This document shows positions 7,122 to 21,397 of a stretch of DNA of 22,905 nucleotides, piece by piece. The stretch is from IMG/VR virus record IMGVR_UViG_2571042690_000020, one strand, 5' to 3'. The position numbers were made by a program, and so were the translations under genes. Below the pieces are notes generated by a model, which searched no databases, was not told the DNA's origin, and was given only the letters and a program-made list of their open reading frames with translations. Position 1 is the stretch's first letter. Each line of letters starts with the position of its first letter. Origin of the DNA: a virus (taxonomy: Duplodnaviria > Heunggongvirae > Uroviricota > Caudoviricetes).

Positions 7122-8873
7122 ATGATTCAGGACGCTTTTGTGCGCCAGCGTGCGCGGCAACTTTACTGGCAGGGTTATCCGCCCGCAGAAATATCACGTC
7201 TGATGGGAATAAACCCGAACACGATTTATGCGTGGAAAAAACGTGACCAGTGGGATGAAACGCCACCCGTGCAGCGTGTCACGCAGTCCATCGATGCGCG
7301 CCTCATCCAGCTTACTGAAAAACAGAATAAAACAGGCGGTGACTTTAAGGAAATAGACCTGCTGACCCGGCAGCTTAAAAAGCTGCATGATGGCCAGCCG
7401 GATGTGATGGCCGCAGGAAAGAAAGGCCGGGCGAAAAAACTCAAAAATCATTTCACGCCGGAACAGATTGCCGCACTGCGGGAAAAAATCATCAGCAGGC
7501 TGGAGTGGCATCAGCGGGGCTGGTTTGACTCCCTGACCCTTTGCAGGGAAGCCGGGATACGTAACAGGATGATCCTGAAATCCCGACAGATTGGGGCGAC
7601 CTGGTATTTTGCACAGGAAGCACTGCTGATGGCGCTGCGTGACGATGTGGCGCAACCTTACCAGCGTAACCAGATTTTTTTGTCTGCGTCGCGTCGTCAG
7701 GCGTTCCAGTTTAAAAGCATTATTCAGAAGGCCGCGGCTGAAGTTGATGTGGAGCTGAAAGGGGGCGATAAAATCATCCTCTCCAACGGCGCAGAGCTGC
7801 ATTTTCTCGGCACTTCTGCTGCGTCGGCACAGTCCTATACGGGCAATTTTTATTTTGATGAATTTTTCTGGGTCAGTCGCTTTGCTGAACTGCGCAAGGT
7901 GGCTGGCGCTATGGCAACCCTCAGCGGACTGCGGCGCACCTACTTCTCCACGCCATCCACCGAAACGCACGAGGCATACGCCTACTGGAACGGCGACCGC
8001 TGGAACGAGAAAAAGGCCTCGCATAAACGCCAGCGTTTTTCTGTGGACTGGAAAACGCTGCATAATGGGCTTATCTGCCCTGACCGGACGTGGCGGCAAA
8101 TTGTCACGCTGGAAGATGTGGTTAATCACGGCTGGAAACACACCGATATCGACGAAATTCGTGATGAAAACACCGAAGACGAGTTCCTCAATCTCTATAT
8201 GTGTGAGTTTGTCCGCGAAGGGGAATCGGCATTTAACCTGAATATCCTGATTGGCTGCGGTGTTGACGGATACGACGACTGGAAAGACTGGAAACCTTTT
8301 GCTCCCCGCCCGATGGGGAATCGTCCGGTATGGATTGGGTATGACGCAAACGGCAGTAGTGGCAACGGCGACAGCGGCGCTGTGTCCGTGGTGGTTCCTC
8401 CGGCTGTTCCTGGCGGCCGTTTTCGAACGGTGGAGACGCGACGCGTTCAGGGGCTGGAGTTTGAAGAACAGGCCAGAGTCATTGAAGAGTTCACGTGTCG
8501 CTACAACGTGGAACACATCGGCATTGATGTGACGGGCGGGAACGGGGAGGCTGTTTATCAGATAGTGAAGCGGTTTTTCCCTGCTGCTATTCCGTACACC
8601 TTCACGCTGTCATCAAAACGGTCGCTGGTACTGAAAATGCTGCAAATAATGCGTGCCGGGCGGTGGGAATACGATCGCGCCGAACGCGAGCTGGTCGCGG
8701 CCTTTAACGCCGTGCGTAAGGTGAAAACACCGGGCGGCTTTATCACTTACGAAACGGACCGCGCGAGGGGGATCAGCCACGGCGACCTTGCGTGGGCAAC
8801 CATGCTTGCTGTCATTAACGAACCAATTGGCGGCGAAGGAGAAAACGAGCGTTTCATGGTTATGGAGTTCTGA
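7122..8873 (+). CDS. P: Terminase ATPase (large) subunit (P2 gpP-like)
   Basis: 583-aa ORF upstream of and overlapping the portal gene; size and synteny match P2 gpP. Confidence 0.9.
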   Translation: MIQDAFVRQRARQLYWQGYPPAEISRLMGINPNTIYAWKKRDQWDETPPVQRVTQSIDARLIQLTEKQNKTGGDFKEIDLLTRQLKKLHDGQPDVMAAGKKGRAKKLKNHFTPEQIAALREKIISRLEWHQRGWFDSLTLCREAGIRNRMILKSRQIGATWYFAQEALLMALRDDVAQPYQRNQIFLSASRRQAFQFKSIIQKAAAEVDVELKGGDKIILSNGAELHFLGTSAASAQSYTGNFYFDEFFWVSRFAELRKVAGAMATLSGLRRTYFSTPSTETHEAYAYWNGDRWNEKKASHKRQRFSVDWKTLHNGLICPDRTWRQIVTLEDVVNHGWKHTDIDEIRDENTEDEFLNLYMCEFVREGESAFNLNILIGCGVDGYDDWKDWKPFAPRPMGNRPVWIGYDANGSSGNGDSGAVSVVVPPAVPGGRFRTVETRRVQGLEFEEQARVIEEFTCRYNVEHIGIDVTGGNGEAVYQIVKRFFPAAIPYTFTLSSKRSLVLKMLQIMRAGRWEYDRAERELVAAFNAVRKVKTPGGFITYETDRARGISHGDLAWATMLAVINEPIGGEGENERFMVMEF

Positions 8874-9919
8874 TGAGCAGAAAAAATAAAAAAGTGCGCA
8901 TGAGTTCACGCATTGATCTCGCTGATGCGCTCAGGAAAGAATCATCGCTCAGTGCATTCACATTTGATGGTCCTTATCGCCTGACCGGGCATGACCTGCT
9001 GGACAATATGTACTGTGCTGATAACGGGCGGTGGTATGAAACCCCGGTGGACTGGTACGGTCTGGCAAGAGCAGCCCGGCAAACGTCCTGGCATCAGTCT
9101 GCGCTTTACTTTAAGCGCAATGTATTACTCGGTTGCTACATCCCGCACCCGCTGCTTTCCCGGCAGGATTTCTCGGCGCTGGCGCTGGACTGGTTTGTGT
9201 TCGGTAACGCATTCCTTGAGCTTCGAAGCAATATGCTCGGCGAACCGCTTAAATTACGGCACGCCCTGGCGAAATACATGCGACGCGGAAGCGATCTTGA
9301 ATCATGGTGGTATGTGCAGGATGGCAAGGACGCGTTTCAGTTTCGTCCTGGCAAAGTGTGCCACCTGATGAATCCGGATATTAACCAGGAAATCTACGGC
9401 ATGCCGGAATATCTTGGCGCATTACTCTCGGCCAGCCTTTCTCATTCGGCGGACATGTTCAGAAAACTGTACTACGACAACGGATCCCACGCCGGGTGCA
9501 TCATCTACATCGGTGCAGCGCAGGTAAACCGCGAAAGCATGGACTCCCTGAAAGAAACGCTACAGGGGGCACGTGGTGGTGGTGCGTTTAAAAACGTGCT
9601 CATTCATGCGCCCAACGGGGGCAAAGAGGGGGTGCAAATTTTGCCGTTCCAGCAGATCACCGCAAAAGATGAATTCATGAATGTTAAGGCGGCATCCCGT
9701 GATGATGTGCTGGCTGCGCACCGCGTTCCGCCGCAACTGATGGGGGCGATGCCGGGCGAAAAAAGTGCGTTTGGCGATGTGGAGAAGGCAGCGCGGGTTT
9801 ACGCAATTAACGAGCTGATGCCCGTTATGGAGGCTATGAAGCACATCAATGACTGGCTTGGCGAAGAGGTGATCCGTTTTAACTCTTATGCTCTTCTTGA
9901 TGAAAAAACAGCCCCGTGA
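8873..9919 (+). CDS. Q: Portal protein (P2 gpQ-like)
   Basis: 348-aa ORF whose start overlaps the terminase stop (TGATG), as in the P2 PQ operon. Confidence 0.85.
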   Translation: MSRKNKKVRMSSRIDLADALRKESSLSAFTFDGPYRLTGHDLLDNMYCADNGRWYETPVDWYGLARAARQTSWHQSALYFKRNVLLGCYIPHPLLSRQDFSALALDWFVFGNAFLELRSNMLGEPLKLRHALAKYMRRGSDLESWWYVQDGKDAFQFRPGKVCHLMNPDINQEIYGMPEYLGALLSASLSHSADMFRKLYYDNGSHAGCIIYIGAAQVNRESMDSLKETLQGARGGGAFKNVLIHAPNGGKEGVQILPFQQITAKDEFMNVKAASRDDVLAAHRVPPQLMGAMPGEKSAFGDVEKAARVYAINELMPVMEAMKHINDWLGEEVIRFNSYALLDEKTAP

Positions 9920-9935
9920 TGGGGCTGTCCTTTTT
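9903..9935. terminator. Bidirectional intrinsic terminator between convergent genes
   Basis: AAAAA-ACAGCCCC-GTGAT-GGGGCTGT-CCTTTTT: an 8-bp GC-rich stem flanked by an A-run and a T-run. The portal stop codon lies in the loop. Confidence 0.6.
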
Positions 9936-10458
9936 ACCAGAGTTGAACCATTTTCTGGGTGCCGTCAGGCTTGAGATTATCAATTTCAGAGAGAACGTAA
10001 TATTGAATGGCTTCACAAACGGTGGTGTAGGGTGAATTACCTTCTTTAAGTGGCACGATATTATTATTAACGCGAACCTGTATTTCATCGTTATACATTG
10101 CGATCGAAACAGGAGTGTGCACGAACGCGACTTCGCCAGGTGTGTCGTCAACCACCGTTTCAATACTAAAAGTCAGTTTTCGCTCATCATTGCTGCCCCG
10201 TGCTTTGGGGGTAGCGGCAGGGATCTGGGATAAAGGCATTCTGCGAAATCCTTCGGCTGCTTCCAGTCCGCATGAAACGTAATGCTGGCGATTACCGTCG
10301 CTATCTGTCCAGGTCTGTGATGGCAGCTCCAGCGAGATTTCATAAGCATCAACAATGCCCTGGGCAAGGCGTACAAGCGGGGTCAGATCTTCATTGCGGC
10401 GAAAGCTCTCCTTTACCTGCTCCCGTTTTTCTCTTAACTGCTTGTAATTAATGACCAT
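9934..10458 (-). CDS. Hypothetical cargo protein (unknown function)
   Basis: 174-aa ORF from an internal ATG at 10458 with a GGAGG RBS (the ORF-track start at 10497 lacks one). Convergent with the portal gene, in the position P2 uses for accessory genes such as old/tin. Confidence 0.55.
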   Translation of the reverse strand: MVINYKQLREKREQVKESFRRNEDLTPLVRLAQGIVDAYEISLELPSQTWTDSDGNRQHYVSCGLEAAEGFRRMPLSQIPAATPKARGSNDERKLTFSIETVVDDTPGEVAFVHTPVSIAMYNDEIQVRVNNNIVPLKEGNSPYTTVCEAIQYYVLSEIDNLKPDGTQKMVQLW

Positions 10459-10558
10459 AAGACAGCCTCCATTGATTTCTTTGCTCGTATTTTGCACTTA
10501 TGAAGTATGGTCGGCAAGGTGCCGTATCGCTGACGCGCTTCGCTTGTCTGCTGCTTCG

Positions 10559-10585
10559 CCGGGGCATAAAAAATTTATGCCCCGG
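10559..10585. repeat. Perfect 27-bp palindrome CCGGGGCATAAA-AAA-TTTATGCCCCGG
   Basis: 12-bp perfect inverted arms around a 3-bp centre, about 100 bp upstream of the 9934..10458 gene start. No flanking T-run, so not a classic terminator. Confidence 0.5.
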
Positions 10586-10956
10586 CTCTCCAGCTCCTGT
10601 ATCAATCAGATAATTTCACGACGCCTTCCAGTTTATCGCCACCATCGACGGTCAGACTCTTACGCAATTCCACCGCGTTGACTGCATGTTCTCGCTGCCT
10701 CAGTGCGATTTTGACGGCCTTACCTTTCACCCCATCAAATCAAAAGCCCTCACGCCTTTTTCATGCTCAGCGTGAGAAATATGGCCATTCTGTTGTGTCT
10801 CTGCGACATCGTTCAGGGAATGCTATTTACCCCCTGAAACGCGGGCTGTTCCCCCGTCACCTGCGCGCAGAAAAAGCGCGTTTTTTTGTGCACGCACGGA
10901 TCCTTGACGGATCCAGCCGCCATGCGGGCCGGAAGGGTAAAAAGTCGTTCAAAAAA

Positions 10957-10984
10957 ATTGTGCAAATTTGTGCACTTTTGTGCA
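10957..10984. promoter_or_regulatory. Three phased copies of (A/T)TTGTGCA at 10-bp spacing
   Basis: ATTGTGCA, TTTGTGCA and TTTGTGCA begin at 10957, 10967 and 10977, one helical turn apart, upstream of a TTGACC -35-like hexamer at 11004-11009. Candidate operator or activator array. Confidence 0.35.
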
Positions 10985-11084
10985 GGTAAGCATGCCTATA
11001 TATTTGACCGTGGCTTGCCTTTGATGTAGTTTATACGTCACAAAAACCACAAAACGTGGTTATGATTTCTATGAGGGGGTTGAT

Positions 11085-11120
11085 ATGAAAAAAATGTATG
11101 ATGAATTTGATGGTTTCTAA
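11085..11120 (+). CDS. Candidate 11-codon leader peptide (MKKMYDEFDGF)
   Basis: GAGGGGG RBS five nt upstream of the ATG. The stop sits 19 nt before an intrinsic terminator and about 60 nt before the first operon gene. Confidence 0.3.
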   Translation: MKKMYDEFDGF

Positions 11121-11139
11121 GCTACGTTGACCTCTAATG

Positions 11140-11168
11140 AGGCGGGGATTTGCTCCCCGCCTTTTTTA
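11140..11168 (+). terminator. Intrinsic terminator/attenuator hairpin
   Basis: AGGCGGGGA-TTTGC-TCCCCGCCT followed by TTTTTT, ending 13 nt before the ATG at 11182. Confidence 0.6.
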
Positions 11169-11181
11169 TGGATGAAATAGG

Positions 11182-11679
11182 ATGAACCCAATAACACTAC
11201 AAATCATCAGCAATGCTATTGTTCTGCTTGGCGTTTTGGTTGCCATTGGAACCATTATCTACAATGTGCGTACCGCAAAAAAAACTCAAACGGCCAACTT
11301 TCTTTTTGAGAGTCGGCAAGATATGCAATATATAGAGTCATTGCATACCCTGAAACAAGTGCATCGTTCAGGCAAATCATTTCGTTCTTATGTTTTTCCT
11401 TGTGATGGTTGCATAATAACAGATGAAGAAATGGCCGAGCGTCGAAAATTTCAATATATTTTAAATTTTTACGAGCGAGTTGCTGTAAGTATTCGTGAAG
11501 GTATTTATGATGAAAAAATGATAAAAAGAACATCTTACACAACAGTTGTAGAGACATATGATATTGCCGAGCCATTAATTAAAGCAATCAGAGAAAGCAT
11601 TAATTCGGATACTACATATCAAGAATTCGAATGGTTAGTAAGAAGATGGAAAGCTAATCCTTTACGGAAAAACAAATAA
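11182..11679 (+). CDS. Hypothetical membrane-anchored protein (N-terminal TM helix, ~140-aa soluble domain)
   Basis: 165-aa ORF. Residues 5-27 are hydrophobic (TLQIISNAIVLLGVLVAIGTIIY). Markedly AT-rich coding sequence compared with the flanking phage genes. Confidence 0.6.
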   Translation: MNPITLQIISNAIVLLGVLVAIGTIIYNVRTAKKTQTANFLFESRQDMQYIESLHTLKQVHRSGKSFRSYVFPCDGCIITDEEMAERRKFQYILNFYERVAVSIREGIYDEKMIKRTSYTTVVETYDIAEPLIKAIRESINSDTTYQEFEWLVRRWKANPLRKNK

Positions 11680-11718
11680 TGTTTTACCCTTTAATTTACA
11701 AGTAACACAGGGGGAAGT

Positions 11719-12561
11719 GTGACACAGAATCCGTTTTCATTTTATGACTTTTTGGGCTATCTAATTCCAGGTGGGTTATTCCTGTTTATCCTTTTTTTGT
11801 TTTCTATTGAAATTAACCCTGTTTATATAGAAGGTATTCTTAACCATATCCTGAAATATAAAGAAATAATAAGTGTATTTATATATGTGGTATTAATCGT
11901 TCTATCATATATTTCAGGTCACTTCATATCTATTCTATCATCCTGTTTAATTGAAAAATACATGAACAGTAAACTTGGGTATCCTTCAATTTATCTGTTT
12001 TCTAAAAGAAGCTCCCTGAAAATAAAACGACATAATACTAAGTTCAGTATAGTTAATTTTATTCGTGGAGTTTTTTTATTTCCTGTATCAGCTTTTGATA
12101 AAGCAGAACATCATAAAACCACACTGCATTCTATACTTATTAAAGTCTTTTGGCCGCAAATACGAGATGGTTATATAAATGTTTTTTCTGTATCTACGCT
12201 ATATCGACGTAAGGGCTTGAGGGGCGATCTTTTTCGCCTTGCTTATCATTATGTGTATGAACATTCTAAAAATCATCAGGTGAAAATGCAAAACTATGTT
12301 GCTTTGTATGGTTTTTGTAGAAACATTACATTTGTTTTTCTCGCTTCAGTCTGGTTGCTTATGTTCCTGCTCCTTCTATCCTTTTTAATAGATATAAATA
12401 TCAGACTGTTACCTTTTTGTTTTCTTCTCTTGTTTTGTATTGCTGCATCCCGAGTATTTTATTATGGTTTTGTTAAGTATTATCGCCGCTATTCTCTTGA
12501 GGTTTTAATGGCATTTGCGGTACTTCAGCACGATAAAAAAACTTCGGCAATTTCATCATGA
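11719..12561 (+). CDS. Hypothetical polytopic inner-membrane protein (4-5 predicted TM segments)
   Basis: 280-aa ORF with a GTG start and AGGGGGA RBS, 39 nt after the preceding gene. Several long hydrophobic segments (FLGYLIPGGLFLFILFLF, IISVFIYVVLIVLSYISGHFISIL, ITFVFLASVWLLMFLLLLSFLI, LLPFCFLLLFCIAASRVFYYGF). Very AT-rich. Confidence 0.6.
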   Translation: MTQNPFSFYDFLGYLIPGGLFLFILFLFSIEINPVYIEGILNHILKYKEIISVFIYVVLIVLSYISGHFISILSSCLIEKYMNSKLGYPSIYLFSKRSSLKIKRHNTKFSIVNFIRGVFLFPVSAFDKAEHHKTTLHSILIKVFWPQIRDGYINVFSVSTLYRRKGLRGDLFRLAYHYVYEHSKNHQVKMQNYVALYGFCRNITFVFLASVWLLMFLLLLSFLIDINIRLLPFCFLLLFCIAASRVFYYGFVKYYRRYSLEVLMAFAVLQHDKKTSAISS

Positions 12562-12571
12562 TTTGAAACAT

Positions 12572-12597
12572 TGGCACCCTGTTAGCAAGGGTGCCAG
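12572..12597. terminator. Hairpin between convergent membrane operon and parR (putative terminator)
   Basis: GGCACCCT-GTTAGCA-AGGGTGCC, an 8-bp stem lying between the two convergent 3' ends. No strong T-run. Confidence 0.35.
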
Positions 12598-12644
12598 AAT
12601 GATGTGTTGGTCTGTATTTTATTAGTTCACATACAATTATCAGA

Positions 12645-12959
12645 TTATTCTGGGAATAAGGTCTGAATATTCTTTTTTATTTTATAAAAATTGCATTCAA
12701 CTCCGCTAGGCTGATTATCCTGGTATGTTTCCTTGATGCTAACGGTATTGAAGGGGAGGTTGTCCTCTGGCCATTCGGCCATCCAGTAGGCAAATGCTGG
12801 GTTGCGCTTTATGAGCGCTAGCCCAGCCAGAAAGGCCGCGCGTTGCGCGCGGCTGCGTTCGGAGGCTGGCAGGCTATCGAGGTAATTGCACGCCTCCTGT
12901 TCACTCTTGACGGCGGCGGGCTTCAGATAGAAACTTATCCGTCTGGTTGGTGTCGTCAT
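12645..12959 (-). CDS. parR: ParR-like centromere-binding protein (ribbon-helix-helix adaptor)
   Basis: Internal ATG at 12959 with an AAGGAG RBS, 5 nt after the parM stop. The N-terminus (RISFYLKPAAVKSEQEACNYLDSLPASERSRAQRAAFLAGLAL) resembles plasmid R1 ParR as I recall it. Confidence 0.6.
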   Translation of the reverse strand: MTTPTRRISFYLKPAAVKSEQEACNYLDSLPASERSRAQRAAFLAGLALIKRNPAFAYWMAEWPEDNLPFNTVSIKETYQDNQPSGVECNFYKIKKNIQTLFPE

Positions 12960-12963
12960 TGGT

Positions 12964-13923
12964 TTACTCCTTGTCCATTGCGTACAGCCCATTAACCAGA
13001 GCAAACTGTGGCACCCCGTCCGCGATGAAAGTCGCATTAACTCCGCAGACTTCGCGGATAGCGGGTGCCACAATCTCCGCCCCTCCACCGACAACCATCA
13101 CCCGCCCGTAACCCGAAAAAACCGCCAGCGCGCGGATCACGCGTTGTTTCAGTGTTTCTTCCTTTTCACGAATAACCGCCATCAGGCTGGCGTAATGCGC
13201 GTCATTGTGGATGTGCTGGCGCAGCCAGGCTTCATCATGGCGATGTTCGATAATGGTATTGGCGATGTGGTGACTGGTGCGCATACCGTTAGTGGCCATC
13301 ACCGACAGTACGGCATCGGCCATCAGGGAAACGCCTACGTGTGGATCGCAAAACACCTGGCTGATACCTGCCAGTTGCCCTTGAACCTTTGCCACATCCA
13401 GCGTGGTTCCGCCTAAATCCACAATCAGCAGGGATTCAAACGGACTCATGTCAGCCAGTGCTTTAAAGCCAGCCGGAATGGATTCAGGCATAACCCGCAC
13501 GTTACGGATAGTGAATGCTTCGCCGTTCTGGTATTCCACCGGGCGCATAACGTTCGCTTTTTTGCGGTTGATGTTGGCCATGTCCGGCTGTGCGTTTGTG
13601 TCGAAATACTCGCTCAGTGGCAGGGTGACAACCACATCCACCTCCTGTGGCGTGATGCCTGATTTGACCAGCGCGTGATGAATGGCGATTACATTCACAT
13701 CGCTGTACTGGTATTGCGTGTCGGTCGTCTGGACAAAGCGATCGCTAACCGGATCAAAACCATAGCGCACGCCATCAAGCATGTAGTTCGCGGGCTGCAT
13801 GCCACCGAACGGCGCAGACCATTCCGACTTGAAGCTGTTCGGGCTGATGGCGTTGCGGCGTTCGCCATTCTCAGTCCATGCCAGCTTGATGTTGGTGGAG
13901 CCGTCGTCGATACAAATTTTCAT
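12964..13923 (-). CDS. parM: ParM/StbA-family actin-like segregation ATPase
   Basis: 319 aa. The N-terminus (MKICIDDGSTNIKLAW...ISPNSFKSEW...YSDVNVIAIHHAL...VDVVVTLPL) tracks my recollection of plasmid R1 ParM closely, including the phosphate-binding DDGSTN block. Confidence 0.8.
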   Translation of the reverse strand: MKICIDDGSTNIKLAWTENGERRNAISPNSFKSEWSAPFGGMQPANYMLDGVRYGFDPVSDRFVQTTDTQYQYSDVNVIAIHHALVKSGITPQEVDVVVTLPLSEYFDTNAQPDMANINRKKANVMRPVEYQNGEAFTIRNVRVMPESIPAGFKALADMSPFESLLIVDLGGTTLDVAKVQGQLAGISQVFCDPHVGVSLMADAVLSVMATNGMRTSHHIANTIIEHRHDEAWLRQHIHNDAHYASLMAVIREKEETLKQRVIRALAVFSGYGRVMVVGGGAEIVAPAIREVCGVNATFIADGVPQFALVNGLYAMDKE

Positions 13924-13999: not shown

Positions 14000-16822
14000 T
14001 CATATATCGCTGCGCGTTTTTTGCTCATTTACGGGATTCGTAAGTCCCGTTTCTGTCTGTTTTTTGTTTCCACTGGTCAGGCCACCCCGCAGCAGGTCTG
14101 CTTTGCGGCTGGCGCGTTCAGTGGTTTCACTGATTCTCTGTGCGTGCTCTGCGTCGCGGATGGCGCGCAGCATGTCAGAAAGCACGGTAACGGGTGTTTT
14201 CATGGTGTTCTGGCCCTGCTGAAGTGTGGATGCCAGGCGTGCGGCGGCTTCAGGGTCTGATGCCCCCAGCTGTGCCAGATAGCTGGCGACCGGGTTATGG
14301 CGGATCTCCGTGCTGCTTACGCCATGATTACGGCTCAGGCGCTGCCAGAGCTGCGTGATTCGGCTGTCCGGGCGGGTATCCGGTTTGCGTACAATTTCAA
14401 ATCCCTGCGGTGCAATGATGCTGCCGTCAACGTACAGACTGCCGCCCCGTAACAGGTGCTGCATCTGTTGTTCACCGATATGCAGGCCGAGAGATTCAGC
14501 AGACTCCCGCCATTCTTTAGCGAGTAATTCGTGGTTATCAGGCAAAGGCCGCTGCTGTTTGCGGCTCTGTGTCCAGCTCTGCATTTCATCGCTGCTGTTT
14601 TTTGCCTGTTTGTCACGAAGCGAACGCATCAGCGCCCGGCGTTCGTGTCGTTTCAGTGAGCGCATCCATTCGTTCACTTCAACGCCGTCAGGGAGCTGCG
14701 GCCACGGTGCTGGCCGTTCTTCCGGCTGTTCTGTCCCGTTGTTGTCCGTTTCCTGTACACGGGGACAGTTATTGCCACGAGTCCAAGGGGCGGCAGGGCC
14801 GCCCTGAAGGTCAAAACCATTTTCGCGGGCGCTGTCTTCCGCTTCCGGTTTACGTCTTACCAGCTTCCAGTTATCCGGATGCGTGCACACACGGGAGGAT
14901 TCCCCGATGAGTGGTGACCAGATCCCGTAAATCTGTACGCTCTGTTCGCCGTAATCGTTCAGCTCATCTGCGAGGTCGTAGGCGGTGCGAATCAGGTAGT
15001 CCTTGCGTGGAACAAGCACGCCACCCTGTTTTTCAATGTAGGTGGCAAAACACCCGGCATCGGCGGCAGCGAGTACCGCATCCATTGCATCATCTTTCAG
15101 CCGTTGCGGGCCTTCCGGATTGCGTGCCATCTGGCTGGCAAGGCGGCGCAGTTCACGCCACACCTGACGGGAGGGGATGCCAAAGAACTGGAACTGACGG
15201 ACCCGGTGAAGGCGCGCCCAGCCGATGGCGCGCTCCACGCTCTCGGCCATTGATTTTCCGGTTTCGTGGTCCACGCGTGGCTTGCCCGTTTTCGGGTCGA
15301 TGCCATCCACGGCGCGGCTGTCCAGGTTCTTTCCGATGTAGGTGGCGATGTAGCTGGTTGGCGTGCCTTTTGAGCCGTCGACATACTCCACCTTAAAGCG
15401 CGGAGTAATATCATTGCCCAGCTCGTGGCGGTCTTCCTGAATGGCAATATCGCGGGTATGGGACACAATGGTGTCGATTTCTTCCGGATGTGCAAAGACC
15501 ATCATATGCCAGTGCACGGTGCCGTCATGATGAGGCTCCACCGTGCGGATGCCATACCAGCGCAGGCCGTCGCGGTTCAGTTTTTTGCGGACCGCCGCAA
15601 AAAACGTGTTAACCAGGTAATCGCTGGAGTCGCGCATTGTGGCCCCGTTCCATTTGGGATTCGGATGACCGTTCTCCGTTGTGGCGTGGTATTTTGACGG
15701 GCAGGTGACAGTCAGAAACACCGCTTTGTCGCCACGGGCTTCGGCCAGAAGTTCCAGTCCCTTCATGGTGGCCATCATTTCTGCCTTACGGTGAACCGGG
15801 TTACTTACTCCCGCGTAATACACTGTCTCGAGATCAATCGTGAACCCGTCTTCATTTTCCAGCATGAAACTTTTCAGGAAATCGCGTGTTTTCTCGCGCT
15901 GTGCGCGAAACTCGCTTAACGCGTCCTGGCTCAGATAGGGTGATGTTTTTCTGGAAACCAGACAGGCGGCGCGGAGTTGTTCTTCTCTCCACTCGCAACG
16001 TAACAGCCACAGTTTGCGTTTCCACCATTCCGCACAGGTCAGGCGAAGGATTGCGCCCGGCAGCAGCTCCGTGTCCGGTTCGTTCCTCCGGTCTTTGTCT
16101 GTTGTCAGTGCGTCATAATGTGGAGGCATGGCGTGCAGGTGTAACGCCATGCGGGCCAGCATCTGATACGCCTTCAGGGTTACATCCATGGTCAGCTCGC
16201 CATCGGTCGCGCCAAAGCCATCGCAGAGTTTTTCGAAGGTGCTGCTGAACATCGCCGCCGTCATGGTGGCCAGCGTCTGTATCTGGTGTTTGTTGAGCTG
16301 CGGCAGGTAAAGCAAATCGTCCAGGCGTTCGCGTCCGGCAAGGGAGCGATAACCCGGTGTCAGCCAGCGTCCGTCAGTGCTATCCAGACGTTCGAATATT
16401 TTGCGCAGGGTTCCGCGTGCATAGCGTTCCGCCTGCCAGCTCTTTTTGCCTTTCCGGCGATCGGCTTCCTGTTTTTTGCGCAGGAAGGAGAGGTGGCGAA
16501 TAAGCGGATCGCGCAGATAGGACGGCAGCAGGCGCAGCGAGGCCATGGCTTCATCCACCGCGCCACGTGCCTGTTTTCTGGCGTCTCCTGCCAGTGTGAT
16601 GGTTTTGTCCTGTTTTTCCTGTGCGTCCAGGCTTTTATTAATCAGGTTGCCCAGCGGCGTGGCTGAGAACGCCGCATCAGCCATTTCCTGGCGGCGCTCG
16701 TTCTCTGCCCGGTAGGCATCCAGCCAGGAGGAAAGCGCGGATTCAGGAGCGGGGATCCCCGTTCCTTCACGCCCCACTGCGTGGCGCGGTTGTTGCCAGT
16801 CCCTGAGGTACTCTGCCGTCAT
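14000..16822 (-). CDS. A: Replication initiation endonuclease (P2 gpA-like HUH rolling-circle protein)
   Basis: 940-aa ORF with an HUH-type metal motif (TVHWHMMVFAH) and a YIATYIGKN catalytic-tyrosine block, downstream of the early operon as in P2/186. Confidence 0.85.
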   Translation of the reverse strand: MTAEYLRDWQQPRHAVGREGTGIPAPESALSSWLDAYRAENERRQEMADAAFSATPLGNLINKSLDAQEKQDKTITLAGDARKQARGAVDEAMASLRLLPSYLRDPLIRHLSFLRKKQEADRRKGKKSWQAERYARGTLRKIFERLDSTDGRWLTPGYRSLAGRERLDDLLYLPQLNKHQIQTLATMTAAMFSSTFEKLCDGFGATDGELTMDVTLKAYQMLARMALHLHAMPPHYDALTTDKDRRNEPDTELLPGAILRLTCAEWWKRKLWLLRCEWREEQLRAACLVSRKTSPYLSQDALSEFRAQREKTRDFLKSFMLENEDGFTIDLETVYYAGVSNPVHRKAEMMATMKGLELLAEARGDKAVFLTVTCPSKYHATTENGHPNPKWNGATMRDSSDYLVNTFFAAVRKKLNRDGLRWYGIRTVEPHHDGTVHWHMMVFAHPEEIDTIVSHTRDIAIQEDRHELGNDITPRFKVEYVDGSKGTPTSYIATYIGKNLDSRAVDGIDPKTGKPRVDHETGKSMAESVERAIGWARLHRVRQFQFFGIPSRQVWRELRRLASQMARNPEGPQRLKDDAMDAVLAAADAGCFATYIEKQGGVLVPRKDYLIRTAYDLADELNDYGEQSVQIYGIWSPLIGESSRVCTHPDNWKLVRRKPEAEDSARENGFDLQGGPAAPWTRGNNCPRVQETDNNGTEQPEERPAPWPQLPDGVEVNEWMRSLKRHERRALMRSLRDKQAKNSSDEMQSWTQSRKQQRPLPDNHELLAKEWRESAESLGLHIGEQQMQHLLRGGSLYVDGSIIAPQGFEIVRKPDTRPDSRITQLWQRLSRNHGVSSTEIRHNPVASYLAQLGASDPEAAARLASTLQQGQNTMKTPVTVLSDMLRAIRDAEHAQRISETTERASRKADLLRGGLTSGNKKQTETGLTNPVNEQKTRSDI
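14027..14066. repeat. Copy 2 of ~41-bp element, inside the 3' end of gene A
   Basis: CATTTACGGGATTCGTAAGTCCCGTTTCTGTCTGTTTTTTG, overlapping the last ~22 codons of A. Confidence 0.5.
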
Positions 16823-18605: not shown

Positions 18606-19016
18606 CTATGCGTTAAATACGGTGCACTGTGCGTCATCAATGAATGCGACTTGAGAGCGCTCTATCAGGCGGAGATTTGTCAGAATTTCTGATTCCCTTA
18701 TGGGGTGAGGAGTGATCAGGTATTTATCCTGTAACCCGGCGATAATGGTGTATCGCTGTAGCTCCGAGCCAATTGTGTAAATAAGGCGTCCGGTGTTAGA
18801 CAAATCCAGTCCGGTGACTGGTTGTGTTCTGAGAACCGCCAGTTCAGCATCCTGTTTTGCGATAATTTCGGCTGCTTCTGCCGTGACTCTTGCGACTATC
18901 AGTGTGTGGGTTGCGACGTCCATATGATTATTTGCTATGGCTTTTTTCGCTACTTCGTTTTCTGTCTTTGAAATTTCTTTCAGTGCTCTGATGATACCTT
19001 CTTCTTTTGCGTGCAT
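18606..19016 (-). CDS. Hypothetical early-operon protein
   Basis: 136-aa ORF with a GGAGA RBS. Confidence 0.55.
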   Translation of the reverse strand: MHAKEEGIIRALKEISKTENEVAKKAIANNHMDVATHTLIVARVTAEAAEIIAKQDAELAVLRTQPVTGLDLSNTGRLIYTIGSELQRYTIIAGLQDKYLITPHPIRESEILTNLRLIERSQVAFIDDAQCTVFNA

Positions 19017-19108
19017 TTTTGTATCTCCGTTATTTGCGTGTGCGAATACCTCCGTTAATACGGATGGTTTTCACGTTTTCTTATTTAATTTGATGTTTTA
19101 TTTGTATC

Positions 19109-19223
19109 GTTATTCACCAGTGAAAAAACGTTCAATCTTTTTTACTGAATGAATAATTCGCACAATGCCAATTGCGCAGACCACTGAAATAATCAGAACA
19201 ATCCATGACATAAATATACTCAT
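19109..19223 (-). CDS. Candidate 37-aa single-TM peptide (MSIFMSWIVLIISVVCAIGIVRIIHSVKKIERFFTGE)
   Basis: Not in the ORF track because it is shorter than the cutoff. Its ATG overlaps the upstream gene stop (ATGA at 19220-19223); hydrophobic core followed by a basic tail. Confidence 0.35.
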
Positions 19224-19462
19224 GCGATATTCCCCAGCTTATACGGTTCAATATGTTCCCCGCATTCTGCGGCACAGATCAGCTCGGAAAGTTCGTTAAG
19301 TGCATCCAGATCATCAGCGTAAAAAGCCACGTCATACAGACTCCGGATTGCCCTGGTCAATGAGTCACGGGCTGCACGTTCAGCATGAGCGCCTGATGCA
19401 CTTAAGCGAAAATAAAAACGCTCAAGTGCTTTGTTAATGAGAGTTTTATATTCTTTGCCCAT
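19220..19462 (-). CDS. Hypothetical protein
   Basis: Internal ATG at 19462 preferred. The ORF-track start at 19513 is a TTG and would overlap the upstream gene. Confidence 0.45.
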   Translation of the reverse strand: MGKEYKTLINKALERFYFRLSASGAHAERAARDSLTRAIRSLYDVAFYADDLDALNELSELICAAECGEHIEPYKLGNIA

Positions 19463-19473
19463 CGCAACGCCCT

Positions 19474-19752
19474 TTAATCTGCTTTCTGAATTTCTGCTTC
19501 TGAATCCATACAAATAATTTCGATATAGGGTTCATCGCCATTAGTCTTACGTGCTTTTTCCGCTTCGCTAATGATTTCGTGTACAGTCTGGTACGGAAGT
19601 TCTACGGTCAGGCGCGTGCCGTTCAGATAAACGTAAGTAGCTGCATTTTTTTCGGATGGAACAACTCCGTCAATGGCTGATGCGCGTAATAACAGTTCAC
19701 CGCGAAAATCAATAAAACGGATAAATACACCTTGTGCATGCTCTTTGGTCAT
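19474..19752 (-). CDS. Hypothetical protein
   Basis: Internal ATG at 19752 with an AGGTG RBS. The ORF-track start at 19812 is a TTG overlapping the upstream gene. Confidence 0.5.
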   Translation of the reverse strand: MTKEHAQGVFIRFIDFRGELLLRASAIDGVVPSEKNAATYVYLNGTRLTVELPYQTVHEIISEAEKARKTNGDEPYIEIICMDSEAEIQKAD

Positions 19753-19762
19753 AAAGCACCTG

Positions 19763-20113
19763 TTATAAATCAGCCTGTTTAATAAAACTTTGCCCGTGAA
19801 GCAGACGATCAACCGTGCGAAGTGCTTCGTATAATGTGAAATCCTGCCCGAACTGATTGTCGCCGTTGCTCAGTGCAAAAATGCGGTTTCCGGTAAATGG
19901 GTTGCGCTGGCATCTGTGAACCACGATTCCTGCTTTTTCAATCAGCCAAGTGTGTTCACCAATTTGTTTTACTGGGTAGCCATCCGGCGTTGCGTGTGTT
20001 TCGCTCAGGCTGTAGCGAGAGTTGCTACGTGATGCACTGGTAGCGAAACGGTTAGCATGGCGTTCCGCACCGTTGCGGAAGCGCTGCTGTGAAGAATTGC
20101 GCTGTAGTTTCAT
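19763..20113 (-). CDS. Hypothetical protein
   Basis: 116-aa ORF with an ATG start, the first gene after a divergent intergenic region. Confidence 0.5.
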   Translation of the reverse strand: MKLQRNSSQQRFRNGAERHANRFATSASRSNSRYSLSETHATPDGYPVKQIGEHTWLIEKAGIVVHRCQRNPFTGNRIFALSNGDNQFGQDFTLYEALRTVDRLLHGQSFIKQADL

Positions 20114-20250
20114 ATTAAAACTCTGTACCTTCGGTAAGGTGTACTCGTGTCACCTTGTATTGATTTGTGGTATTTTTTTTGTGTGTCTAGGACTTGGACT
20201 GGCCGGTTCAGGTCCTGGCTTATGTTTAATTAAATTGTTAAGAGGTTTTC

Positions 20251-20442
20251 ATGTCAGAAGATAAAAAAGTTGTTAATTTGTTGAGTGAACTTAGTGCTGC
20301 TCTGGATAACATTAACCCTCCCAGGGTAAAAACGACGGGTGATAAAGACGCATTAAACACAGAGATTCATATATTACTGGCGTTAGTAACTGACAAAATT
20401 CAGCGTAAATACCCACCTGTCACACAACTGGTTGATTTTTAA
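20251..20442 (+). CDS. Hypothetical small protein (63 aa), plus-strand gene embedded in the minus-strand early region
   Basis: AAGAGG RBS 8 nt upstream of the ATG. AT-rich; convergent with the 20449..20871 gene. Confidence 0.45.
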   Translation: MSEDKKVVNLLSELSAALDNINPPRVKTTGDKDALNTEIHILLALVTDKIQRKYPPVTQLVDF

Positions 20443-20448
20443 TTTGAT

Positions 20449-20871
20449 TTATGCCGGGCTGCTCCCGGCATCTTCTAGCTGCCATAATGTCTCGTCACCT
20501 GATAGAGCAAAACGAAATGAGTGAAGTATATCCCCCCGAGAGAAGCTCACGGCTACAGCTGCGGGAAAGTCAAATATAATCCCACCTTCATTTTTAAAAC
20601 GATTACGCAATTGATAGGCTATCGGTTTGATTTGTGCAGGAAGAGTATCTATATCTCTTCCATTGACAACAGAATCTTTGTTTTCAAGTACTGATTTAGC
20701 GATTAGATATAGATGCCAGTAACTGGTTACAATTGTTACTCCTGTGATGTGTCGTAAATTAATTGCAATTCGTCCGTTATTATGTTTTTCCGCAAGGTAT
20801 TTCAGGTTATCAATTAATGCTTGGTCATTTTTTGAAATAGTTATTGTGAAATCTGACGTGTTTGTTTTCAT
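20449..20871 (-). CDS. Hypothetical protein (cargo/moron candidate)
   Basis: Internal ATG at 20871, 5 nt after the Cox-like stop. The longer ORF-track form (to 21114) overlaps the Cox-like gene. AT-rich. Confidence 0.45.
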   Translation of the reverse strand: MKTNTSDFTITISKNDQALIDNLKYLAEKHNNGRIAINLRHITGVTIVTSYWHLYLIAKSVLENKDSVVNGRDIDTLPAQIKPIAYQLRNRFKNEGGIIFDFPAAVAVSFSRGDILHSFRFALSGDETLWQLEDAGSSPA

Positions 20872-20875
20872 ACGA

Positions 20876-21397
20876 TTAGTTGCCTCTGTTGTTTCTGAGT
20901 TGGTCCAGTTTTGAGCTTCTGCCTGTATAAACTCGCTTACCGTTAATGGTCTGGCAGTCTTCTTTATTAGCTGGAGAGAACTTCCTTTTCTGGCGGTCAT
21001 ACGTCCAGTAACTTTTCCAGTTGTGCCATTCTGGGGGCTCGTGCTCTGGTAGCTCATCAGCCAACTTGTCCCACTCTTTGGCGTTAAACCACCATACTCC
21101 GTCTGAGTTTTCATCTTCCGGGTTTGTGCGCGTCTTGTGTCCCGGCATTTGACCGCGATGAATGGCTACGCGCAGTGCAGATTTTGTTAGCCCAATATAT
21201 GCCGCGCCTTTTTCCAGAGAGCAAAGCCCGGCGATCGGACCATCCAGCCGCAAAGTCGCTCCTTTTTTGTAGGAACGCTTTTTCTTGTTTTCTTCGTGCT
21301 CGTCGTCGTTGGCGGCATCAATGGATCCGCTGAGTGCGTCACTTTCCTGAAGTGGTTGGTGGTCAGATAACTCTTTATCGGCAATGAAGTCCCGCAT
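20876..21397 (-). CDS. Cox/Apl-like DNA-binding regulator with extended termini
   Basis: 173-aa ORF, first gene of the early operon, divergent from the repressor. AAGAGGA RBS. HTH-like segment LTKSALRVAIHRGQMPG. Confidence 0.5.
   Translation of the reverse strand: MRDFIADKELSDHQPLQESDALSGSIDAANDDEHEENKKKRSYKKGATLRLDGPIAGLCSLEKGAAYIGLTKSALRVAIHRGQMPGHKTRTNPEDENSDGVWWFNAKEWDKLADELPEHEPPEWHNWKSYWTYDRQKRKFSPANKEDCQTINGKRVYTGRSSKLDQLRNNRGN

Follow-up and report, generated by a model that had tools for sequence, protein, structure and literature searches.

DUF4760 and Csx27-like genes in the cargo slot of a P2-like prophage: a probable junction of two mobile cassettes, one with a conserved micro-ORF leader

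The DNA analysed here (22,905 nucleotides, IMG/VR record IMGVR_UViG_2571042690_000020; hereafter the window) is a P2-like (Peduoviridae, P88-type) E. coli prophage whose orientation is reversed relative to the P2 map. Its cargo slot between the portal gene Q and the replication gene A holds two consecutive open reading frames (ORFs) for membrane proteins, ORF1, a DUF4760 protein, and ORF2, a Csx27-like protein, which an initial annotation made from the sequence had read as one two-gene operon. Because each gene occurs alone widely and the two are joined only where both are at least 87% identical to those of the window, the 'operon' is best described as a lineage-specific junction of two self-sufficient, independently mobile prophage cassettes, and the true and ancient partner of DUF4760 would be a leader made of a micro-ORF and an intrinsic terminator. 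This leader, the occurrence of the same peptide in lytic and lambdoid phages devoid of DUF4760 and the EP-domain-like fold predicted for ORF1 are as yet unreported.

Separate occurrence of the two genes

The functional, conserved gene pair proposed in the initial annotation did not survive a survey of one genome per species together with IMG/VR: each gene was found without the other, and the check for conserved co-occurrence came out negative. In 11 species-representative genomes and about 35 IMG/VR contigs, the 5-6 kb around DUF4760 homologues 46-90% identical to ORF1 hold no relative of ORF2, and every non-E. coli locus examined has DUF4760 without ORF2; outside the E. coli lineage the gene is directly followed by a terminator of its own. 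About 30 different P2-like phages, with terminases 46-100% identical to that of the window, carry DUF4760 alone some 600 nt past the portal gene, and two loci (L059/L060) that share the backbone of the window (terminase 100%, ParM 99%) have a 78%-identical DUF4760 gene abutting stbB and no ORF2. Relatives of ORF2 about 45% identical to it are likewise solo AT-rich genes with an AT-rich upstream region of their own; they immediately precede xis/int in lambdoid prophages of E. coli, Salmonella, Enterobacter and Klebsiella. The joined pair was found in one lineage only, which includes a metagenomic variant (L086) with the two genes at 88% and 87% identity and the same 39-nt spacing.

What the initial annotation had said of the island as such was borne out. 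The ORF coordinates and a sharp GC trough were both confirmed, the GC content being 0.28-0.39 over ~11000-12800 as opposed to 0.45-0.62 on either flank, and recent horizontal acquisition is in keeping with AT-rich cargo in the cos-proximal Q-A hotspot of a P2-like phage; the two have a GC content of 30-43% wherever found, in hosts of 50-57% GC. The slot had also been called a hotspot for anti-phage cargo, and the Q-A hotspot of P2-like phages is indeed rich in anti-phage systems (Rousset 2022). According to a 2026 survey, the genes at this locus are all unknown ones in 19% of P2-like phages. The identical cassette is present in three GenBank phages, including the virion-derived vB_EcoM-705R2 (ON470623), and in 289 of 5426 complete E. 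coli genomes (~5%), where it is chromosomal in every case; many of the E. coli that bear it are sequence type 131 (ST131) clinical isolates. With hundreds of homologues each and conserved motifs, ORF1 and ORF2 are real genes. We note that the vB_EcoM-705R2 record annotates, instead of ORF1, an antisense ORF of 106 aa (window 11255-11575; ON470623.1/L085 1756-2076), which is probably a mis-call since it is the plus-strand DUF4760 frame that is conserved. The features of the window are collected in Table 1.

Table 1. Coordinates of the cassettes and of neighbouring features in the window
Feature	Position	Strand	Remarks
Promoter-like element TTGACC-17 nt-TAGTTT	11004-11032	+	Same position as TTGACT-17-TAATTT in other DUF4760 loci
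5' leader hairpin AACCAC-aaaac-GTGGTT	11045-11061	+
Micro-ORF Shine-Dalgarno (SD) sequence GAGGGGG	11073-11079	+
Micro-ORF MKKMYDEFDGF-stop	11085-11120	+	11 codons and stop (36 nt)
Anti-SD box GTTGACCTCT	11126-11135	+	'AACCTC' nearly invariant in alignment A4
Intrinsic terminator GAGGCGGGGA-TTTGC-TCCCCGCCTT and T-tract	11139-11169	+	12 nt ahead of the ORF1 ATG; 10 pairs, 7 of them GC
ORF1, DUF4760	11182-11679	+	ATG start; 165 aa; predicted single-pass N-out/C-in protein with a cytoplasmic helical domain of EP-domain-like fold
ORF2, Csx27-like protein with four transmembrane (TM) segments	11719-12561	+	GTG start; SD GGGGGAAG; 280 aa; 39 nt after ORF1, no terminator between
GC-rich hairpin GGCACCC-N9-GGGTGCC	12573-12595		Between the convergent ORF2 and stbB; read from the sequence
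Terminase	7122-8873
Portal (gene Q, PF04860)	8873-9919
Cargo gene phrog_5091	9934-10497 (GenBank: 9934-10458)	-	174-187 aa; abuts the portal gene; no TM segment
StbB	12645-12959	-	Partition pair with ParM; Pfam PF10784, PF06406 and PF21523 matched across the pair
ParM	12964-13923	-	Plasmid-type partition; between the cargo and gpA
gpA (PF05840, replication gene A)	14000-16822	-
DUF4754 gene	19220-19513		Second AT-rich stretch
DUF4761 gene	19763-20113		Second AT-rich stretch
Unannotated 221-aa ORF	20449-21114		Second AT-rich stretch

The leader ahead of DUF4760 and its peptide

Comparison of the leaders in the window (11085-11169) and in L011-L021, L043-L080, L131 and L132 shows a conserved unit of presumed promoter, 5' hairpin, SD, micro-ORF, anti-SD box, terminator and DUF4760. 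Of 48 distinct DUF4760 upstream regions, 47 have the micro-ORF and terminator, and in the remaining one a rearrangement truncates the terminator; the start given for the island in the initial annotation, 11085, is the exact ATG of the micro-ORF. Either GGAGG or GGGGG lies 5-8 nt ahead of this ATG in every DUF4760 locus. Among 32 distinct leaders, changes within the final six codons are nearly confined to wobble sites (GAT/GAC, GAA/GAG, TTT/TTC, GGT/GGC) and the stop varies among TAA, TGA and TAG, a signature of selection on the peptide; the same codon-level conservation shows translation of the micro-ORF. The architecture is kept at 51%, 37% and 26% DUF4760 identity with a terminator following each time, the peptides of distant loci reading MKKFDEYEGV-stop (Klebsiella), ...EEYEGI-stop (a Pseudomonas phage) and ...NEGWDF-stop (an Acinetobacter phage). 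The micro-ORF is without annotation in PV468777, ON470623 and the two distant phages. In an E. coli P2-like contig (L040, 4760-5000), the leader has given way to a rearrangement that reaches into the middle of the terminator hairpin; the contig has lost the micro-ORF and the terminator stem, has kept DUF4760 and ORF2 intact and represents a natural 'leaderless' variant.

In the window, the element at 11004-11032 is the presumed promoter; a consensus scan gave a second candidate at 11037-11066. In many DUF4760 loci (L012, L014, L015, L020, L043, L044, L054, L080) the palindrome ATTACC-N5-GGTAAT lies over the spacer and the -10 element and looks like an operator for some regulator; it is degenerate in the window (11010-11032), having decayed in the E. 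coli version. Most loci have a short stem-loop at the position of the 5' hairpin with differing stems (ACCAC/GTGGT, CTACA/TGTAG, CGACA/TGTCG, GGACTT/AAGTCC), a compensatory variation that was judged by eye, without statistical scoring. The anti-SD box pairs with the SD of the micro-ORF and thereby encloses the micro-ORF in both the minimum free energy and the centroid folds of the window and L014. The terminator is present in all DUF4760 loci with an intact leader, its stems differing in distant loci, and leaves no room for a separate promoter ahead of ORF1, so that DUF4760, and in the window ORF2 as well, would be expressed by read-through.

Two elements of a leader-peptide attenuator, a short translated ORF with an SD and an intervening intrinsic terminator, are present. 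Folding revealed no clear antiterminator; what was seen is the pairing of SD and anti-SD and the terminator, with a 4-bp overlap between this pairing and the foot of the terminator. A long-range helix of AUGAAAA with the terminator U-tract proposed by RNAalifold was set aside as consisting mostly of A-U pairs with one-sided changes, and a search of Rfam at E<=1 returned no family for the leader, only two sub-threshold chance matches. Directly after the T-tract (window 11168-11181), the string (C/T)ATGGATGAAA is nearly invariant across loci and may serve as a weak ribosome-binding site, a mini upstream ORF or a pairing partner; its use as an in-frame alternative start of DUF4760 was rejected because the ATG frame differs between loci. 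Coupling by read-through of the micro-ORF stop into ORF1 was likewise dismissed, the in-frame stop just ahead of the ORF1 ATG not being conserved elsewhere.

The peptide is also encoded where DUF4760 is absent. An exact degenerate search of 2.9 million IMG/VR viral contigs for FDEFDGF-stop gave 41 matches (~0.1 expected by chance), 32 of which sit 60-95 nt upstream of DUF4760. Four of the other nine belong to T4-like lytic Karamviruses of Enterobacter (PG7/CC31 group), in a region shared by 38 GenBank records; here the micro-ORF has 21 codons (MFSLRKFD.ED...FDEFDGF-stop), an SD and a following hairpin and lies ahead of gene 47, and in Enterobacter phage PG7 it corresponds to the hypothetical CG98_gp053 (34532-34597). 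Others lie between the gene for a Q-like antiterminator and the holin gene of lambdoid phages, some of which carry the motif in tandem (MLDEFEGFDEFDGF-stop), and the peptide is also encoded in a 183-kb phage. No DUF4760 gene was found in the retrieved stretches L096, L099, L100, L108, L130 (PG7), L092, L095, L106, L114 and L118, nor in any Karamvirus in GenBank; Enterobacter hosts of Karamviruses do carry one (L013, L020). A tblastn search with the 21-aa Karamvirus peptide, a short query of low complexity, gave no match, and the region was found by megablast. Occurrence without DUF4760, duplication of the motif in tandem and a peptide tail that drifts alongside DUF4760 speak more for a peptide that binds in trans than for a leader that only arrests ribosomes. 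It may be, too, that the peptide serves lytic phages as an antitoxin-like mimic.

The two membrane proteins and their surroundings

The length first given for ORF1 was confirmed, and hydropathy agrees with the single N-terminal TM helix first assigned to it, which spans residues 8-26; because K/R residues follow this helix, the C-terminal domain is predicted to be cytoplasmic. ORF1 matches Pfam DUF4760 (PF15956) with 119.3 bits against a gathering cut-off of 25 (residues 12-156 on positions 2-141 of 141), as do 38 of 38 aligned relatives, and is a member of PHROG 2284. The initial view that neither protein belongs to a characterised family must be amended for ORF1 in that its Pfam family is defined, and stands in that this family is uncharacterised. 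DUF4760 relatives 26-90% identical to ORF1 are carried by temperate phages and by chromosomes in Enterobacterales, Pseudomonas, Acinetobacter and Alteromonas. The literature searched mentions DUF4760 in passing, by name, and assigns it no function; no description was found of DUF4760, of its leader micro-ORF and terminator or EP-like fold, of the DEFDGF peptide or of a bacterial EP-like domain, and a search for bacterial EP-domain homologues gave plant papers only. To our knowledge, the EP domain is generally regarded as plant-specific.

The structure model of ORF1 is confident, with a predicted local distance difference test (pLDDT) score of 92.8. Foldseek ranks an EDS1 chain first for the DUF4760 model, and only EDS1 chains among the entries of the PDB exceed a query-normalised TM-score of 0.5; the fold matches comprise EDS1, PAD4 and SAG101, including chains solved with pRib-ADP or ADPr-ATP bound, and their matched part is presumably the all-helical EP domain. 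The likeness is one of fold. No EDS1-type Pfam family was matched by any of the 38 DUF4760 members at E<=10, ORF1 has no sequence match in the PDB at E<=1, where profile searches were empty or gave noise, and a TM helix alone precedes the DUF4760 domain in place of the N-terminal lipase-like domain of the EDS1 family. On the strength of the model, the cytoplasmic domain may be a binding or sensor domain. Among the PADLOC models, only PDC-S35 was matched by ORF1, weakly (E 0.014).

The 280 aa of ORF2 were confirmed, and four of the four to five TM segments first attributed to it are seen by hydropathy (~12-30, 50-68, 206-224 and 230-248), a fifth not being found; the AlphaFold2 (AF2) model, with a pLDDT of 71 and no informative fold match, has long helices at these places. 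Residues 74-200 form a K/R-rich loop of ~125 residues. The protein is assigned to phrog_12528 and has no Pfam family and no NCBIfam match; a profile search nonetheless delineates a large family of 1087 representatives at 50% identity (E<=1e-3; 239 at E<=1e-30), nearly all of ~280 aa and matching end to end. ORF2 matches the PADLOC model of Csx27 with an E-value of 1.1e-5 (residues 6-244 on positions 4-179 of 206), and 52 of 68 diverse relatives do so as well (best E 2.2e-10), 15 of the 68 matching the sister model tm_4; the only other matches of these relatives at E<=0.01 among 5027 PADLOC models are to PDC-M48A (two models, 3 and 2 members) and PDC-S47 (one member). ORF2 also gives a weak match to PprPIWI. 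It has the four TM helices of the Csx27-like family, of which it is probably a remote, non-CRISPR member, with the reservation that TM composition may have inflated the match. No Cas13b gene or CRISPR array was found near ORF2 or its relatives, the window and related loci holding phage genes only, and ORF2 is therefore Csx27-like and not Csx27 proper; its family relation would place a Csx27-like protein in prophages. Csx27-like genes reportedly occur in operons with competence, ubiquitin-like, WYL-HTH or DNA-modification genes (Makarova 2019), none of which was found in the ORF2 loci examined. In PMC7642515 and PMC11662929, which cite Smargon 2017 and Makarova 2019, the family is predicted to form membrane channels, and Csx27 is described as an accessory of type VI-B1 CRISPR-Cas13b that represses Cas13b interference. 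The hairpin that follows ORF2 (12573-12595) has no clear T-tract and was not called by the terminator scan; it is a possible terminator.

Minus-strand capsid genes extend to ~7000 in the window, ahead of the terminase and portal genes. The StbB/ParM pair is context and lies outside the module; about one quarter of P2-like phages carry this partition system (Rousset 2022). In L059/L060, ParM is 99% identical to that of the window and StbB only 52%, a contrast which suggests that the centromere-binding module was exchanged. Since only some cassette-carrying phages have the phrog_5091 gene, we place it outside the module too. The ~500 nt at 10500-11000 are GC-normal and without a convincing ORF. 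Repeats of TGTGCA(C) at ~10953-10985, which recur directly ahead of the DUF4760 promoter in other P2-like loci, are possible cos or terminase-binding elements; a search of the window for the 19-mer of P2 cos gave no match at up to 3 mismatches, and the cos site was not located. At 940 aa, gpA has a long C-terminal extension past the Phage_GPA domain (residues 179-503), compared with ~700-860 aa in the other P2-like loci retrieved. A second AT-rich stretch (18800-21100, GC 0.37-0.46) occupies the early/immunity region upstream of the integrase gene (21898 onward).

Possible functions and likeness to known systems

The genome positions of the two cassettes point to membrane-level superinfection exclusion or abortive infection, a reading to which we lean tentatively and give a little less than an even chance. 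In P22-like prophages of Klebsiella and Serratia, DUF4760 lies between ant/tailspike and ejection-protein genes, the slot that sieA has in P22; in the Pseudomonas phage vB_PaeS-D14E, DUF4760 comes directly after cI on the same strand, the position of lambda rexAB. It adjoins int in an Acinetobacter phage, stands beside a PHROG 'Sie-like' gene among tail genes in L076 and, in GenBank phages, is confined to temperate ones. This recurrence of DUF4760 in classical lysogen-expressed exclusion slots, including that of SieA, is positional evidence. Neither protein matched a housekeeping or O-antigen-modification family in Pfam or NCBIfam, in line with the initial annotation, nor was Gtr or Oac matched in these databases or a toxin-antitoxin family in Pfam, PADLOC or NCBIfam.

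On this exclusion reading, the island would be made up of two accessory ('moron') cassettes, each of one gene and each mobile by itself, which came to share a transcription unit in a single P2-like lineage of E. coli. The first (~11004-11679) would open with a promoter and a 5' hairpin; next would come a micro-ORF that is strongly translated and whose SD the anti-SD box could sequester, then the terminator and DUF4760. Most transcripts would stop at the terminator and yield the peptide in excess, and DUF4760, here together with ORF2, would depend on read-through alone, its dose being low or raised conditionally. DUF4760 would be a single-pass inner-membrane protein whose EP-like cytoplasmic domain binds or senses, and the second cassette (11719-12561) would supply a four-TM protein of a family predicted to form channels, the conflict of the lysogen with incoming phages being fought at the inner membrane. 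Because phages without DUF4760 encode the same peptide, we infer that it acts in trans on DUF4760, perhaps as an inhibitor or antitoxin-like partner. A bolder version, which we consider doubtful, makes of micro-ORF and DUF4760 a two-part immune module: an abundant acidic-aromatic peptide (...DEFDGF-COOH) would restrain an EP-fold membrane protein and release it on infection, the stand-alone peptides of Karamviruses and lambdoid phages would be antitoxin-mimic counter-defence, and DUF4760, acting in immunity, would be the first relative of the EP domain known from prokaryotes.

Several points weigh against a role in exclusion or abortive infection. There is no experimental or sequence link to a validated defence protein: PADLOC v2, which includes models of Old, Tin, the Rst_ systems (Rousset 2022) and the PD- systems (Vassallo 2022), gives only the Csx27 accessory model and the weak PDC-S35 and PprPIWI matches, and NCBIfam returns nothing for either protein. 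Several DUF4760 copies are on plain chromosomal backbones (Enterobacter, Rahnella, Atlantibacter, Pantoea), so that the gene is not strictly phage-bound. Tight attenuation is unusual for exclusion proteins, which need to be in place before infection; a purely cis-acting leader accounts for most of the same data; and the channel function of Csx27 is itself only a prediction. The locus, presented in the initial annotation as undescribed, is already listed in Rousset 2022, its accessions being absent from the table of tested systems, and it is not in the published screens covered by PADLOC.

The leader can also be explained as a purely cis-acting, translation-sensing attenuator, in which the ribosome on DEFDGF-stop sets read-through, DUF4760 is induced by perturbed translation (phage takeover, antibiotics) and the peptide as such is functionless. 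This would account for the SD, short ORF and anti-SD box, for a terminator 16-22 nt past the stop and a promoterless structural gene, for conservation limited to the C-terminal residues, as in arrest peptides, and for the presence of micro-ORF and hairpin ahead of unrelated genes (Karamvirus gene 47, lambdoid holin genes). It is unlikely in our view, if well worth keeping in mind, because nothing resembling a convincing antiterminator emerged beyond the SD:anti-SD pairing and its overlap with the foot of the terminator, the spacing suggests that a ribosome on the stop codon would end several nt short of the hairpin, the tail drifts with DUF4760 (DEFDGF, DEYDWF in Rahnella, DEYEGV, EEYEGI, NEGWDF) despite a conserved ribosome tunnel, and tandem duplication of the motif in some phages suits a binding motif better than an arrest sequence. 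A still less probable alternative restores the gene pair, as an obligate sensor-effector system of abortive infection in which the EP-like DUF4760 detects infection and opens or activates an ORF2 pore, in parallel with the plant receptors EDS1/PAD4, which activate channel-forming helper NLRs. The layout suits co-transcription (a 39-nt gap, no terminator, a good SD), the pair was kept during the parallel divergence seen in L086 and is carried by the 289 E. coli genomes, and the EP-like fold of ORF1 and Csx27-like homology of ORF2 would fit such roles; but solo genes of both kinds are far more widespread than the pair, L059 has the same backbone with DUF4760 and without ORF2, and outside this lineage DUF4760 runs directly into its own terminator.

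Functions other than anti-phage defence are rather improbable as well. The cassette could be an addiction or maintenance module (peptide antitoxin and membrane toxin) that stabilises the prophage or an episome, or an envelope-altering lysogenic conversion function; it adjoins a plasmid-type partition pair, the order of small upstream gene, terminator and membrane protein would give a stoichiometry like that of toxin-antitoxin systems, and single-gene chromosomal islands exist outside prophages. Most DUF4760-bearing P2-like phages, however, lack ParM/StbB, similarity to known toxin-antitoxin, Gtr, Oac or other conversion families was not found, and repeated placement in exclusion slots of unrelated temperate phages is more typical of genes of inter-phage conflict. 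It is very improbable that the EP-like domain serves counter-defence, binding TIR-derived ribosylated nucleotides as a membrane-tethered sponge against Thoeris-like immunity. The fold matches to EDS1, PAD4 and SAG101 include ligand-bound chains, and phage hotspots can also carry anti-defence genes; yet there is no sequence-level relation to the EP domain, the ligand pocket of plant EP domains is formed by a heterodimer of two of them, expression curbed by a terminator and anchoring in the membrane run counter to the needs of a sponge, and the gene is also on plain chromosomes.

DUF4760 modules are widespread in temperate phages of Enterobacterales, Pseudomonas and Acinetobacter. Were exclusion or abortive infection their role, they would add a new type of component, a peptide-gated, membrane-anchored EP-like protein, to which T4-like phages would oppose a very small counter-defence gene, and the island would open the large Csx27-like membrane family to experiment for the first time outside CRISPR. 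The fold of DUF4760 is relevant to how the EP domain of the plant EDS1 family arose. Reasoning from gene pairs at phage hotspots can take juxtaposed single-gene cassettes for systems, and unannotated genes of 36 nt can be the real partners there.

Among known proteins, Csx27 shares with ORF2 four predicted TM helices and a near full-length model match. The match is remote, however; ORF2 is longer than the 206-position model, has a cytoplasmic loop of ~125 residues and is a solo prophage gene, and the Cas13b, CRISPR array, competence, ubiquitin-like and WYL neighbours of Csx27 genes are all absent from its vicinity. The DUF4760 model has the fold of the EDS1/PAD4/SAG101 EP domain and differs in lacking both sequence homology and the lipase-like fusion. 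In being small, AT-rich genes for membrane proteins expressed from prophages, the two genes resemble P22 sieA, lambda rexAB and sieB, HK97 gp15, e14 YmfE/Kunado and P2 old/tin, and DUF4760 and the ORF2 relatives occupy the same genome slots as such exclusion and abortive-infection genes. SieB had no Pfam or PADLOC match in ORF1 or ORF2. YmfE/Kunado, an AT-rich, H-NS-silenced prophage TM protein of Sie-like defence that blocks T5-like phages, was considered as a relative of ORF2 and rejected (hhalign probability 0.3%). We know of no conserved leader micro-ORF and terminator at sieA, rexAB, sieB, gp15, YmfE or old/tin. A very short, strongly translated ORF followed by an intrinsic terminator, with an abundant small product and read-through into the genes downstream, is the arrangement of microcin C mccA-mccB and of the leader attenuators trp, tnaC and topAI toiL. 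The window shares this layout of micro-ORF and terminator, with a dissimilar peptide, dissimilar downstream genes and a peptide that also stands alone in other phages.

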